DNA of 41,230 nucleotides from a virus: IMG/VR virus record IMGVR_UViG_3300045988_113036. One strand, given 5' to 3'. The position numbers and the translations under genes are program-made. The notes below the pieces were generated by a model that ran no database searches, was not told where the DNA came from, and was given only the letters and a program-made list of their open reading frames with translations. Shown in pieces: positions 5,389 through 8,997 of this stretch. How positions within the stretch are numbered: the stretch's first letter is position 1; each line of letters starts with the position of its first letter.

Positions 5389-5661
5389 GGGCGGTATACC
5401 CTCCCCCACCGGCCTAGCCCCTCCACGGTCATAGGGCTGCGGATACCCCCGGCACCGTTTTTTCCACGGAACACGCCCGCCGGCCCCGCATCCCCGTGGC
5501 GCGGAAACGCCATATACGGCCGTTCCGGCCGCGTTCCGGCGCTTTCGGGGCTTTGCCGTCATGTCCGGCCGTGTTCGCCGGTCTGCGGGCATCGGCCCCA
5601 AACAGCCGGCCGCCCATGCGCCCAATCATACGAAAGACGCTTGAAAACGTTGCAATTACGC

Positions 5662-5690
5662 TTGTCAAGCGTTACAAAACATGGTATAGT
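5662..5690 (+). promoter_or_regulatory. Strong sigma-70-type promoter, probably giving a leaderless or near-leaderless transcript
   Basis: TTGTCA (5662-5667), a 17-nt spacer, then TGG-TATAGT (extended -10, 5682-5690). The ATG of the next gene lies 8 nt after the -10. An 8-bp inverted repeat acgcttga/tcaagcgt (5637-5644 / 5665-5672) overlaps the -35. Confidence 0.65.
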
Positions 5691-5697
5691 CTTGGGT

Positions 5698-6255
5698 ATG
5701 GGAAGACGTTGCGAGATAGACGGCACATACATCGCCGACGACAACGGCCACGGCGGCAGCATCCAGCGCGTATGCTCCGGCCGCTGCCGGGTCGAGGCAT
5801 GCCGGCGACGCAAGGCCATACCCGAGGGGATGAAGGCGCTGCGCAGGTGGGTGCGCGCCGACGGCAAACGGCCCATCCAGCCCGACGGCAAACCCGCGTC
5901 CAGCACCAAGCCGGCCACATGGTCGGCGTTCGAACAGGTCGCGAACGCGGGGGAGGGCGACGGCTGGGGGATCATGCTCGGCGACGGGCTCGCCTGCTAC
6001 GACCTCGACCACATCCTCGACCCGCAAGGCCGAGTCAAGGAACGCCACCCCGGCCGACTCATCCTCGACCGGCTCGAACGCGAAGGCTGCCTGTTCGCCG
6101 AGATCAGCAGCAGCGGCGAAGGACTCCACCTGTTCGTCCATTCCGACGCCCCGAGCTGGAAACGCGAAGGCGTGGAATTCTACAGCCACAGCCGCTTCAT
6201 CCGCATGACCGGCATCAAGTGGAACCCGAAAAGGAGGCGCAATGCTCATCGGTGA
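5698..6255 (+). CDS. Archaeo-eukaryotic primase (AEP, Prim-Pol) domain protein with N-terminal Cys-rich motif, 185 aa
   Basis: LACYDLDH (DxD motif I), SSSGEGLHLFV (sxH motif II), EFYSHSRFIRMTG (typical Prim-Pol C-terminal strand). N-terminus has C..CSGRCRVEACRRRK. The TTG at 5641 was rejected as the start because it lies inside the promoter. Confidence 0.65.
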   Translation: MGRRCEIDGTYIADDNGHGGSIQRVCSGRCRVEACRRRKAIPEGMKALRRWVRADGKRPIQPDGKPASSTKPATWSAFEQVANAGEGDGWGIMLGDGLACYDLDHILDPQGRVKERHPGRLILDRLEREGCLFAEISSSGEGLHLFVHSDAPSWKREGVEFYSHSRFIRMTGIKWNPKRRRNAHR

Positions 6256-7270
6256 CATCAAACCCTACGAGCGCAACGCCCGCCACAACGACAAGGCCAT
6301 ACCCAAGGTCGCCGAAAGCATCCGGAAGTTCGGCCTGCGCGGCAGCATCGTCCTCGAATCACGCGACAACCCCGTCATCGTATGCGGACACACGCGCGTC
6401 GCCGCCGCGAAAAGCCTCGGCTGGACGGAAATACCGGACGACCACATCGAATACTGCGACGGCCTGACCCAAGACGAGATCGACGCCTTCCGCCTCATCG
6501 ACAACAAGACCGGCGAAATCGCCACATGGAACGTCGCCCTGCTGAAAAGCGAAGCCAAACGCCTCAACGGCAAACTCGACTTCGCCCGCTACGGCTTCGA
6601 CTTCAAAAGCAAGGTCAAACCCTACGGGGCCGAACGCGCCAGAACCGACGACTACTACAACCTGCGCCTGTGCGACATCGACGACTGCGGGCCCGACGGC
6701 ATGCCCCTGCTCGCACCCACCGACATCCGGCCCGCCCGACTCATCGGCTTCAACTACGCCAAAAGCTGGAACGAACCCAAAACCGGCGTCGGCATCCACT
6801 TCTTCCTCGACGACTACCAGTTCGAACGCATCTGGAACAAGCCCGAGGAATACACGCGCCTGCTCGCCTCGTTCGACATGGCATGCGCGCCGGACTGGAG
6901 CCTCTACCTCGACATGCCCCGGCCGATGCAGCAATGGAACGTCTACCGCTCCCGCGCCATCGGCGACTGGTGGCAGCGCCAAGGCCTGGCCGTCGTGCCG
7001 ACCCTGTCATGGAGCGACGAGAACAGCTACGAATACTGCTTCAACGGCCTGCCCACCGGCTCCACCGTCGCCGTGAGCGCCATCGGAGTCAAGGGCGACC
7101 CGGAGCGCGAACGCCTCTGGCACGCCGGCATGGACGAGGCCATCGCCCGCGTGAGGCCCAATCGCGTGCTGCTCTACGGCGGCACCCTCGGACACGACAT
7201 GCACGGCATCGAAACCATCGAATACACCAACGCCGTCACCGACCGCATGGCCGGCGACAAACCGCCGTAA
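6242..7270 (+). CDS. ParB N-terminal (sulfiredoxin-like nuclease/NTPase) domain fused to DUF4417, 342 aa
   Basis: RBS aaaggagg. The N-terminus IKPYERNARHNDKAIPKVAESIRKFGLRGSIVL...VCGHTRVAAAKSLG matches the ParB/Srx box (GHTR). The C-terminal half (IHFFLDDYQFERIW..) resembles DUF4417. Confidence 0.7.
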   Translation: MLIGDIKPYERNARHNDKAIPKVAESIRKFGLRGSIVLESRDNPVIVCGHTRVAAAKSLGWTEIPDDHIEYCDGLTQDEIDAFRLIDNKTGEIATWNVALLKSEAKRLNGKLDFARYGFDFKSKVKPYGAERARTDDYYNLRLCDIDDCGPDGMPLLAPTDIRPARLIGFNYAKSWNEPKTGVGIHFFLDDYQFERIWNKPEEYTRLLASFDMACAPDWSLYLDMPRPMQQWNVYRSRAIGDWWQRQGLAVVPTLSWSDENSYEYCFNGLPTGSTVAVSAIGVKGDPERERLWHAGMDEAIARVRPNRVLLYGGTLGHDMHGIETIEYTNAVTDRMAGDKPP

Positions 7271-7314
7271 ACCCCGGCGCAAGCCTGCTTGAAAACTGAA
7301 AAGAGGTACCCGAC

Positions 7315-7947
7315 ATGGGCGGACGAGGCGCAACCAGCAGCCACGGCAAAACCAAAGCCAAGGCAAAACCACTACAGAAAGGCCACCTCACCGCCGACGA
7401 AATCCCCAAAACGCCCGAAGAGACCGCCAAATACATCGGTTCGACCGTCCAGGAAGCCAAGGACATGTTCGACGCGGTGCAGGACTTCACGGCAAGCGCA
7501 TACTCGGGCATCAGACGCGCGCAACGAGGAGAGAAGGCGTCCGACATCCCCGAGCTGCAAAAGAAGTACGACAGCGAGGCCAAACGGATCGAAGGCTACA
7601 TCGAACGCGCGCCCAAATGGGGCGGCGGCGTCACCTACCGAGGTATGAGCCTCCCATCGTCCGTCGTCAAAGGGCTCACGGTCGGAGGAACGTTCGACGT
7701 CAACCTCGGCACCGCCTCATGGAGCACGCAGGAAAGCACCGCGCGCAGCTTCTCCAAGTCGGGCAGCGGCAGCAGGCACGTCGTGTTCGTCAGCCAAACC
7801 CAAAGCAAGGGCACCTCGATCAAACACATCAGTCACTTCGCCAAGGAGAACGAGGTGCTGGTATCCAAGAACGCGAAATACACCATCACCAACATCTCCA
7901 CCAAATCCGGCAGCCCATACACCTACGTCTACGTAAAGGAGAACTAG
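7315..7947 (+). CDS. ADP-ribosyltransferase, R-S-E (C3/VIP2-like exoenzyme) class, 210 aa
   Basis: Catalytic triad pattern in the right order and spacing: TYRGM (Arg), ASWSTQ (S-x-S/STS-like), KENEVLV (ExE). Gly/Lys-rich N-terminus MGGRGATSSHGKTKAKAK. Confidence 0.7.
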   Translation: MGGRGATSSHGKTKAKAKPLQKGHLTADEIPKTPEETAKYIGSTVQEAKDMFDAVQDFTASAYSGIRRAQRGEKASDIPELQKKYDSEAKRIEGYIERAPKWGGGVTYRGMSLPSSVVKGLTVGGTFDVNLGTASWSTQESTARSFSKSGSGSRHVVFVSQTQSKGTSIKHISHFAKENEVLVSKNAKYTITNISTKSGSPYTYVYVKEN

Positions 7948-7949
7948 AC

Positions 7950-8123
7950 ATGACCACCAAGAACACCGCCAAGAAGACCAGCGCCGACGAATGGTGGAAG
8001 CCACCGGTGCAGCGCACCCGCAGCCGCGCCGAAATGGCCGCACGGGCCAACGAGGACAGCCGCGCCTTCATCAAGGCCAACGCCAAGGCCCTCGGCCTCG
8101 ACAAGAAACAGGGCGGCAAATGA
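7950..8123 (+). CDS. Small basic protein, 57 aa
   Basis: ATG lies 2 nt after the ART stop, and its own stop overlaps the ARH start (ATGA). K/R-rich sequence. Confidence 0.5.
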   Translation: MTTKNTAKKTSADEWWKPPVQRTRSRAEMAARANEDSRAFIKANAKALGLDKKQGGK

Positions 8124-8923
8124 CCCACACGCTCAAAGACGCCCTTTATGGTCAGGCCGTAGCCGACGCGCTCGGCGTGCCCTACGAATTCCGCCGCCGA
8201 GGCACCTTCCACGCCACGACCATGACCGGCCACGGCACCCACGGCCAGCCCGCCGGCACATGGAGCGACGACACCAGCATGGCCCTCGCCGTCTGCGACA
8301 GCATCCGCCGCAACAAGGGGCGCATCGACCCGGACGACATCCGCCGACGCTTCGACGACTGGTACCAGTACGGCGAATACACCATCGACGGGCTATTCGA
8401 CATCGGCAACACCACCATCAAGGCCCTGCGGGCCGGCCACGGCATGACCGGCGAATACGACAACGGCAACGGCTCGCTCATGCGAACCATCCCCCTCGCA
8501 TTCACCCGCGCCACCGAAGCGCAGGTCGAACAGGTCAGCGCCATCACCCACGCCAACCCCACCAGCACCCGCGCATGCGCGCGTCTCGTCAACTACGCCC
8601 GCCAACTCGCCGCCGGACGCACGCCGCTCGACGCGATCGGGGAGGCCGGCTACGAGACGGCGCTCGCCGACGAGCCCGAGGGCATGATCCGTTCCGGCGG
8701 GTACGTGCTCGACACGCTCAAGGCGGCCGTCTGGTGCCTCGTCACCACCGACGACTACGCAGGTTGCGCGCTCAAGGCCGTCAACCTCGGCGACGACACC
8801 GACACCACCGCAGCGGTCGCCGGAGGCCTCGCCGGCATCGTCTACGGCATCGACTCCATCCCCGCCGAATGGATCGCCAAGCTGCGCGGCAAGGACGTCA
8901 TCGACGCCTGCCTGTTCGCCTGA
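8120..8923 (+). CDS. ADP-ribosylglycohydrolase (DraG/ARH family), 267 aa
   Basis: GQAVADALGVPYEF, WSDDTSMAL and LGDDTDTTAAVAGGLAGIVYG match the conserved ARH metal-binding motifs. Confidence 0.85.
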   Translation: MTHTLKDALYGQAVADALGVPYEFRRRGTFHATTMTGHGTHGQPAGTWSDDTSMALAVCDSIRRNKGRIDPDDIRRRFDDWYQYGEYTIDGLFDIGNTTIKALRAGHGMTGEYDNGNGSLMRTIPLAFTRATEAQVEQVSAITHANPTSTRACARLVNYARQLAAGRTPLDAIGEAGYETALADEPEGMIRSGGYVLDTLKAAVWCLVTTDDYAGCALKAVNLGDDTDTTAAVAGGLAGIVYGIDSIPAEWIAKLRGKDVIDACLFA

Positions 8924-8950
8924 CGCGGCCAACCGCAAGACCTCATCGAA

Positions 8951-8976
8951 AGCCACCCCACGGGGTGGCTTTTCTT
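8951..8976 (+). terminator. Rho-independent terminator
   Basis: agccacccc / ggggtggct GC-rich stem followed by TTTCTT. Confidence 0.75.
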
Positions 8977-8997
8977 ATGCCCGAAAGGGAGGCGACA

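Follow-up and report, generated by a model that had tools for sequence, protein, structure and literature searches.

A cargo slot between the HNH endonuclease and small terminase genes of a temperate Bifidobacterium phage, holding an ADP-ribosyltransferase gene with two putative immunity genes

We analysed a 41,230-nucleotide (nt) stretch of viral DNA (IMG/VR record IMGVR_UViG_3300045988_113036; the window hereafter), which is the genome of a temperate Bifidobacterium siphophage, and in particular the five genes that lie between its HNH endonuclease gene and the gene of the small terminase subunit (TerS). This interval is best described as a framed cargo slot, because its frame is constant in related phages while the cargo varies, and because distant relatives have HNH adjoining TerS. 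A preliminary description, made from the DNA alone, had taken the five genes for one self-contained module; this was not borne out, as synteny comparison splits them into three units: a PrimPol-like (archaeo-eukaryotic primase, AEP) gene of the phage backbone, a ParB-N/DUF4417 gene together with the gene that follows it, and a set made of an ADP-ribosyltransferase (ART) gene, a small open reading frame (ORF) and an ADP-ribosylhydrolase (ARH) gene. The explanation that we favour, and consider reasonably probable, is that the slot lies between HNH (and probably the cohesive-end site, cos) and TerS, and that its payload is an ART effector with two protective genes, expressed alongside the head genes and kept harmless in the cell that makes it.

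The interval measures 3,609 nt, running from the stop of the HNH gene at 5388 to the ATG of TerS at 8998, exactly as described earlier. Its left border is an HNH endonuclease of 120 amino acids (aa) on the + strand (5026-5388; PF01844, phrog_338; 120 aa in eight assemblies), and its right border is TerS (8998-9423, + strand; Pfam Terminase_4, phrog_83). All five genes between them are on the + strand and tightly packed, again as described: the AEP/PrimPol-like gene (5698-6255, 185 aa; Pfam and PHROG), the ParB-N + DUF4417 gene (6242-7270, 342 aa; PF14386 5e-59, phrog_940), the ART gene (7315-7947, 210 aa; PF03496), a small basic ORF (7950-8123, 57 aa) and the ARH gene (8120-8923, 267 aa; PF03747 1e-59). 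Going from the first gene to the last, neighbours overlap by 14 nt, are separated by 44 nt and then by 2 nt, and overlap again at an ATGA, which translationally couples the small ORF to the ARH gene. The non-coding stretch ahead of the first gene is 309 nt (5389-5697) and not about 270 nt as given before.

We profiled 136 loci with hidden Markov models built from the window and its relatives, and about 200 related loci were compared overall (L numbers below denote loci, P numbers proteins). The identical five genes in identical order were found only in near relatives (large terminase subunit, TerL, at least 99% identical), and one subgroup (L002, L050 and L051) contains an extra 1.1 kb between ARH and TerS. 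The ART, small ORF and ARH genes are a different matter, since the conserved linkage that had been proposed for the whole block is kept for these three in seven or eight lineages, with TerL about 40% identical. Their order is the same in the window type, in L002/L050/L051, in L006/L007/L017 (HNH, a 200-aa gene, ART, small ORF, ARH, a 117-aa gene, ParB/DUF4417, a gene of the G132 family, TerS), in L008 (ParB/DUF4417, a 94-aa gene, ART, small ORF, ARH, DUF2513, TerS) and in L020 (ParB/DUF4417, a JAB-like gene, ART, small ORF, ARH, TerS). ARH is displaced in L019 (ARH, two ORFs, DUF4417, ART, small ORF, ParB-N) and missing from L127 (41% G+C), where ParB/DUF4417, ART and the small ORF are followed by two 167-aa ORFs and TerS. 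L019 is the most divergent ART locus; at 8471-9951 it has a separate ParB-N gene and then genes with TAGT (PF20691) and UDP-glucose/GDP-mannose dehydrogenase domains.

The arrangements across loci are mosaic: HNH-PrimPol-other cargo, HNH-ParB/DUF4417-TerS and HNH-TerS. ParB/DUF4417 is present without ART in three loci (L089, L104 and L115), and in four more distant relatives (L096, L097, L126 and L128; TerL 44-48% identical) only about 120 nt separate HNH from a small TerS. The prediction that related phages would have HNH adjoining TerS is confirmed by these four, and the block, which occupies the same spot, is accessory, as had been proposed. Partial loss of the cargo was also seen. Only a 224-aa ARH-like remnant is left in L059 (6939-7613), L016 (7264-7956) has an internal deletion in DUF4417, and P0012, P0019 and P0037 are fusions made by in-frame deletion across the block (P0038 is listed with such variants). 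The fusions join ParB-N to ART, ART to ARH (at a shared VNLG) or DUF4417 to ARH. Taken jointly, the deletion variants indicate that the block is dispensable; some of them could be assembly artefacts.

By its motifs, the window ART is a stand-alone transferase of the arginine type (R-S-ExE). The catalytic set consists of R109, S135-W-S-T and E178-x-E180; an alignment of 23 family members shows no variation at R109, S135 and E180 and hardly any at E178. The only Pfam matches are ADPrib_exo_Tox (PF03496) and ART, and the PDB sequence matches are the arginine ART Vis (3e-6) and Tre1 (6dre_B, 4e-4). Neither a DarT-type ART nor a macrodomain was matched in Pfam or PADLOC, which places the locus outside DarT-DarG. 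The toxin domain is homologous to the C-termini of other polymorphic toxins: residues 21-189 are 38% identical to the C-terminal ART of a MuF 'minor capsid protein' of a Porphyromonas phage (the sole GenBank phage match, with an ARH gene two genes away on the opposite strand), the protein matches phrog_16619 'minor head protein' (3.5e-23), and the domain of this family ends many MuF-fused or otherwise far longer proteins of 500-2,000 aa. At least one of these, P0219, seems to be polyvalent and to hold several domains of this kind.

Two genes follow the ART gene. A Lys/Arg-rich ORF of 40-57 aa stands behind ART in all eight lineages (8/8), including L019 with its displaced ARH and L127 without one, and we regard its product as a putative non-enzymatic partner of the ART, either an inhibitor or a chaperone. 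The 267-aa ARH is a putative enzymatic immunity protein, an ADP-ribosyl(arginine) hydrolase of the DraG/Tri1 type by its homologies: its PDB matches are Lmo0067 (2e-39), Tri1 (6dre_A, 2e-38) and DraG, and the motifs WSDDTS and GDDTDT are common to the Lmo0067 and Tri1 alignments. These two motifs bind metal in the ARH family. In 6DRE, a solved toxin-immunity complex, one chain is matched by the ART and the other by the ARH. The match of the ARH covers Tri1 residues 72-348 and is without the 71 N-terminal residues of Tri1; where Tri1 has this N-terminal extension, a separate 57-aa gene stands upstream of the window ARH. In one locus (L009, 8636-9610) the small ORF and ARH form a single 324-aa product in frame, as would result from a 1-nt shift of frame towards the end of the small ORF; the fusion reaches no further N-terminally into Tri1 than ARH alone. 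It is suggestive but comes from a single contig, and could be natural, resembling Tri1, or an error of sequencing.

A writer and an eraser transcribed together are typical of regulatory pairs, and the ARH belongs to the DraG family. These genes could therefore be a reversible switch for host take-over that acts within the infected cell, comparable to DraT/DraG or to T4 Alt/Mod, with the ART modifying RNA polymerase, FtsZ or the like, the ARH limiting or resetting the modification or protecting phage proteins, and no toxin passing from cell to cell. The R-S-ExE transferases Alt and Mod of T4 work in this manner (PMC5512222). We consider such a switch quite unlikely here: the overlapping, coupled genes would be expressed simultaneously, which leaves no evident separation in time; natural variants have often lost the block, which is hence unneeded for growth; and the small ORF is tied to ART even where ARH is absent (L127), more as expected for a binding inhibitor than for a regulator.

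Three elements frame the slot. A sigma-70-type promoter-like site, TTGTCA-17-TGgTATAGT, is found at 5662-5690 on the + strand, with 10/12 matches and a TG extension. It is the sole match in 6 kb; shuffled sequences give a mean of 0.9 matches, and the match alone is therefore not above chance. The weight of the site comes from its conservation in relatives instead, since L002, L059, L057 and L064 retain both the -10 region and, upstream of it, AAGCGTTACA (AAGCGTTACA...TGGTATAaT); of these, L059 and L057 are without ART. Of the earlier claim of a near-consensus promoter, the presence of the site stands, backed by its conservation, and the match score does not by itself support it. The ATG of the first gene (5698) lies 7 nt past the -10 hexamer, and a transcript from this promoter would therefore be leaderless. 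An inverted repeat (ACGCTTGAAAA at 5637-5647 and TTGTCAAGCGT at 5662-5672) overlaps the -35 hexamer and is a possible operator.

At the other end, a hairpin with a U-run resembling an intrinsic terminator (8948-8981, + strand) stands 17 nt before the ATG of TerS, and the closing terminator of the preliminary description is hence present as a terminator-like element. Its stem (8948-8973) has 11 bp with a folding free energy of -23.8 kcal/mol (z -3.67) and is followed by UUUUCUUAU; a simple terminator scan did not pick it up. A hairpin with a T-run about 20 nt before the TerS start was also found in L006/L017, L020, L104, L115 and L127, whatever the cargo. The third element is a G/C-rich block at 5389-5460, directly after the HNH stop (GGGGC..CCCC..CATAG..CCCCC, with the palindrome GGGGCGGTATACCCTCCCC), which has invariant columns in 7/7 aligned phages with differing cargo; it is a candidate cos region. 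All three are thus part of the backbone of the phage. Because the promoter-like site and the hairpin are kept regardless of cargo, what they frame is the slot, not this cassette. In L062 (~6470-7641), four consecutive small ORFs share a C-terminal peptide ...ASRSSGS; the copy before TerS, read at the DNA level, is the hairpin GCTAGCCGCTCCAGCGGCTCCTAG, and the other copies probably reflect repeats of the hairpin element between PrimPol and TerS.

Promoter and terminator framing within the late region of a temperate phage fits the pattern of a moron, and the inverted repeat over the -35 hexamer could be an operator. On this basis one can read the block as a toxin-antitoxin (TA) or abortive-infection module expressed from the prophage: the promoter would be active in the lysogen with transcription stopping at the hairpin before TerS, and the ART would be held by the ARH and the small protein until superinfection, then arrest the cell and block the invader. 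Phage ART-ARG pairs have been read as superinfection-aborting TA systems (PMC9503650). The same promoter-like and hairpin elements are present, however, in relatives with quite different cargo and are not cassette-specific, PADLOC gave no match, and the relatives of the ART are virion-linked toxin domains (MuF fusions and long proteins) and not known TA toxins. Loss of ART with an ARH remnant kept (L059, P0037) suits an immunity gene equally with an antitoxin. We judge this alternative to be unlikely.

The second unit, the ParB-N/DUF4417 gene with its neighbour, extends well beyond ART loci. The protein consists of ParB-N (CTPase fold) and then DUF4417, and belongs to the PF14386 fusion (5e-59), of which there are more than 1,466 clusters at 90% identity; the ParB-DUF4417 fusion is phage-enriched with no function assigned (bioRxiv 10.1101/2025.10.10.680097). 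PDB matches of the full-length model at E <= 0.001 are only ParB/Noc-type proteins. A model of DUF4417 only (predicted local distance difference test, pLDDT, 90) gave no significant PDB match, the best being assorted TIM-barrel-like enzymes (E 0.02, template modelling score 0.45). We refrain from calling DUF4417 a 'nuclease', as the DUF4417-only model lends it no structural support, and a weak resemblance to tRNA-guanine transglycosylase was not adopted.

The gene behind DUF4417 carries a recurrent tag, GGRG. The window ART begins with MGGRG (MGGRGATS), which is better conserved in the family alignment than most of the ART catalytic domain. The same tag heads the G132 protein in L006, L017 and L115, a 146-aa protein in L115 and a 232-aa protein in L089 (followed by an acidic ORF), and it is internal (around residue 85) in 250-266-aa proteins of L002, L020, L050 and L051, which have an HNHPxG motif and look JAB/RadC-like by eye with no Pfam match. 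In each of these loci the tagged gene is directly behind DUF4417. We then used 80 further IMG/VR ParB-DUF4417 loci (L140-L219; 26-69% G+C), 79 of which were usable. A GGRG-containing ORF on the + strand, starting -70 to +420 nt from the DUF4417 stop, was found in 74 of the 79, and what follows the tag falls into 56 distinct sequence contexts; as background, about 0.08 GGRG ORFs are expected per interval of equal size. Streptococcus phages IPP66 and A25 have the same gene pairing.

The GGRG codons vary synonymously, including CGN to AGR arginine changes, and selection therefore acts on the protein; GGRG as a recombination junction at the DNA level was rejected on the same grounds. An N-myristoylation-like reading of MGGRGA was set aside, as some families have the motif internally or behind a Prp-type leader. 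In several low-GC loci the GGRG ORF begins M..LNLQ(M/L/F)F-GGRGAS, and one ART homolog begins MLKLDLQLF-GGRGASS. Such LNLQxF-type leaders resemble the staphylococcal leader cleaved by Prp, a host protease that trims a leader (cut F|A) from L27 and from the capsid and scaffold proteins of 80alpha (PMC5744158); the free GGRG N-terminus may be the functional form. In the literature searched there was no mention of a phage MGGRG leader. Behind the MuF gene of two loci (L102, 5993-7540; L103, 4386-6320) stand three or four ORFs in tandem, all with MVKSKPSMT-like leaders, the last of them an ART of the window family, with no DUF4417 in the stretch examined; this looks like a second shared-leader system.

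For these observations we put forward, as a tentative and rather doubtful possibility, that ParB-N/DUF4417 and the next gene make up a two-gene unit that is widespread among temperate phages infecting Gram-positive bacteria and lies upstream of their terminase genes, and in which GGRG(A/S)xS would be an address or processing signal by which DUF4417 loads or modifies diverse effectors for delivery with phage DNA. The second gene would be polymorphic behind a fixed tag, in at least 56 contexts (ART, the G132 family, JAB/RadC-like HNHPxG proteins and many unknowns). GGRG would be freed by removal of the initiator Met or, in low-GC hosts, by Prp-type cleavage (LNLQxF|GGRGA), and the tag would then act much like the capsid-targeting sequence of T4. 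No description of such a two-gene unit was found in the literature searched.

The first gene of the block belongs to neither of the other units. The 185-aa protein has the motifs DLDH, SGEGLH and VEFY..RFIRMTG, of which the first two align with the primase chain 7rr4 and the third is motif-III-like; no helicase or other partner domain is found in the 185 aa. It matches phrog_8643 (2e-55) and the PDB primase chains 7rr4/6a9w (9e-10), and the Pfam Prim-Pol match (21.2 bits, 4e-4) is under the 22.8-bit cut-off. Judged by its distribution, the gene is part of the backbone of this phage group and outside the ART set, because about 35 Bifidobacterium-type phages (TerL 63-67% identical) have the order HNH, PrimPol, unrelated cargo and TerL without DUF4417, ART or ARH. 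PrimPol is also absent from five loci that carry the ART set (L006, L008, L019, L020 and L127). In L062, the gene after PrimPol appeared by eye only to be PP-loop/PAPS-reductase-like.

This independent assortment bears on a reading that unites the five genes in a single DNA-centred system acting on phage or host DNA, such as a DNA-end or DNA-modification pathway. The tight coupling of the five genes speaks for it, as do the ParB-like domains that can be NTP-regulated DNases (PMC5512222), the R-S-E ARTs of which some modify DNA (PMC9503650), and the adjacent DUF4417 and ART genes of mycobacteriophage Trixie and Gordonia phage Rosalind. PrimPol, however, assorts independently of the other four genes, ParB-DUF4417 precedes at least 56 GGRG-tagged contexts that are mostly non-ART, the ART has ExE and not QxE and is paired with an arginine-type hydrolase, and the 'nuclease' label of DUF4417 is structurally unsupported. 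The reading is the weakest of the alternatives because the genes assort independently, and we think it highly improbable.

The explanation that we favour, an ART effector with two protective genes in a framed slot, would work as follows. The slot is framed on one side by the promoter-like site, followed by a first gene that would be leaderless, and on the other by the hairpin before TerS, and its contents vary. Production of the ART would coincide with expression of the packaging and head genes. In the producer cell and in lysogens, the small protein would block ART activity and the hydrolase would erase the modification, whereas in cells without the immunity genes the ART would ADP-ribosylate arginines of bacterial proteins, leading to arrest or reprogramming. 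What the sequences show is gene content, catalytic motifs, homologies and conserved linkage; toxicity, the two immunity roles, arginine as the target residue and the delivery route are what we infer for this locus. Delivery would most plausibly be in the capsid, with injection together with the DNA, or via release at lysis. Capsid delivery is suggested because of the longer and MuF-containing architectures of the domain, the position beside packaging genes and the shared tag. The leader of one homolog (MLKLDLQLF-GGRGASS), with its likeness to that of staphylococcal capsid and scaffold proteins, is a further indication. Packaging has already been predicted for phage ARTs whose genes adjoin those of terminase and portal (PMC9503650).

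Several points weigh against this explanation. With ART and ARH in one operon, equal amounts could mean nil net modification unless the ART exits the cell, and the hairpin would halt transcription ahead of TerS, so that late expression needs read-through or a further factor. The toxin has no MuF fusion, being a 210-aa stand-alone protein, and the MuF-like VG15 gene of the window (12290-13024) is separate from ART and has no toxin domain. The small ORF sequences are only weakly alike between lineages, and the window ORF gave no match in Pfam, PHROGs or PDB sequences (even at E = 10). PADLOC, run on the five proteins, returned no relevant model, the only hit being ParB-N against a methyltransferase model.

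Outside the slot, the 41.2-kb window (64% G+C) has the genes expected of a temperate phage, including a tyrosine integrase (33337-34161, - strand), a GH25/LysM lysin (31110-32336) and TerL (9389-10840; phrog_9). Prophages with the same block were found in genomes of Bifidobacterium olomucense and B. imperatoris (genome-collection scan with a narrow alignment). The identical ART protein is encoded on at least 23 gut-metagenome contigs, and the gene order around it is the same in 8/8 of the contigs examined. A DNA search of GenBank phages with 4700-9500 gave, besides the tRNA, only short matches to DUF4417 in mycobacteriophages, with no close isolate, and Rfam found only the tRNA over 4700-9100. 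This is a tRNA-Ser(GCT) gene (4800-4894, + strand; ARAGORN, Rfam tRNA 55.6 bits, blastn match to a phage tRNA-Ser) between a 277-aa gene (3876-4709) and HNH. The mechanically called 'HNH ORF' from 4789 reads through it, and the N-terminus of that ORF is a mistaken translation of the tRNA. An SPFH/Band-7 protein (PF01145, 3e-29) is encoded at 36717-37691, a few kb from the integrase gene.

Phage ART-ARH toxin-immunity pairs and ARTs beside terminase genes are already known (PMC9503650, PMC11699363, PMC5576092). New here is the variant of Bifidobacterium phages, with three genes and no MuF, and the DUF4417-GGRG association is the newest item. Bifidobacteria are key early-life colonisers of the gut, and a prophage ART effector with its antidotes could decide strain survival and competition in the infant gut; a role of this kind in the gut has been reported for Bxa in Bacteroides. 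That the toxin-immunity logic of ARTs exists without a MuF fusion raises the question of delivery. For a phage domain as common as DUF4417, the GGRG rule offers a concrete, testable starting point, and it may be a general means of recognising effector genes of phages by their sequence.

The gene combination had not been recognised as a named system. This stands for the five-gene set, which is no unit, and does not stand for the ART/ARH core, which corresponds to Tre1-Tri1 and Bxa-Bsi-BAH. Among systems of more general likeness, the morons of lambdoid late operons share with the window block the insertion between genes that are adjacent in relatives, promoter-like and terminator-like signals of its own and a temperate phage; they differ in that here the frame is conserved while the cargo changes and five genes are present in place of one.

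The Cluster A-type actinophages Trixie and Rosalind (gp1-gp4 in both) share with the window a DUF4417 gene that directly precedes an R-S-ExE ART gene and then a small ORF, in a region close to an HNH gene and the end of the genome. The left end of Trixie (L052, 507-2720) and of Rosalind (L139, 577-2721) reads DUF4417 'nuclease', ART, an ORF of about 100 aa (101 aa in Trixie) and HNH. The ART of Trixie (gp2) starts Gly/Ser-rich (GGGGGGAGSGGSS), and Rosalind has the same order without a Gly-rich start. The label 'VIP2 protein' on gp3 looks doubtful. Unlike the window, these phages have a DUF4417 without ParB-N, an acidic small ORF of about 100 aa and no ARH; their ART is of another clade (a weak match to the window ART profile, 4e-7), and HNH follows the set there and precedes it here.

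T4 Alt is likewise an R-S-ExE ART, and it is made late. In T4 internal proteins, unrelated cargo shares a short conserved N-terminal sequence for capsid targeting, as GGRG is shared here. The differences are that a sequence relation is not established, T4 has no adjacent ARH, packaging of the window ART is our own reading, and the GGRG tag is tied to DUF4417.

The type VI secretion pair Tre1-Tri1 of Serratia proteamaculans (6DRE) is closer, since both partners match and in both cases an R-S-ExE ART toxin is paired with a DraG-like ARH that reverses (in the window, putatively) the modification. The window ART has no PAAR domain (Pfam), however, and no type VI secretion genes were seen in the window. 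The N-terminal extension of Tri1, which in the published structure reportedly blocks the toxin's active site, is lacking in the window ARH, and a separate small gene stands in its place.

The other close system is Bxa of a Bacteroides stercoris prophage, an arginine-specific MuF-ART toxin that is neutralised enzymatically by the ARH BAH and through binding by the small protein Bsi (PMC11699363). Here the toxin is a 210-aa stand-alone protein with MGGRG, whereas Bxa is the C-terminus of an 869-aa MuF protein; the window locus is upstream of TerS and that of Bxa is after the portal and MuF genes; the window host is an actinobacterium; and the window small ORF has 57 aa and is basic. Both loci belong to temperate gut phages and lie beside packaging and head genes, and in both an ARH gene adjoins the toxin gene together with a small ORF, which is putatively non-enzymatic in the window. 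The MuF-fused ART of the Porphyromonas phage, 38% identical to the window ART and arranged with its ARH gene in the manner of Bxa, links the two further, and the ExE motif predicts arginine specificity for the window ART as in Bxa. The ARH gene of the window cassette is adjacent and conserved, and a small ORF is always behind ART; the two are candidates for the enzymatic and the binding immunity protein of the Bxa type.

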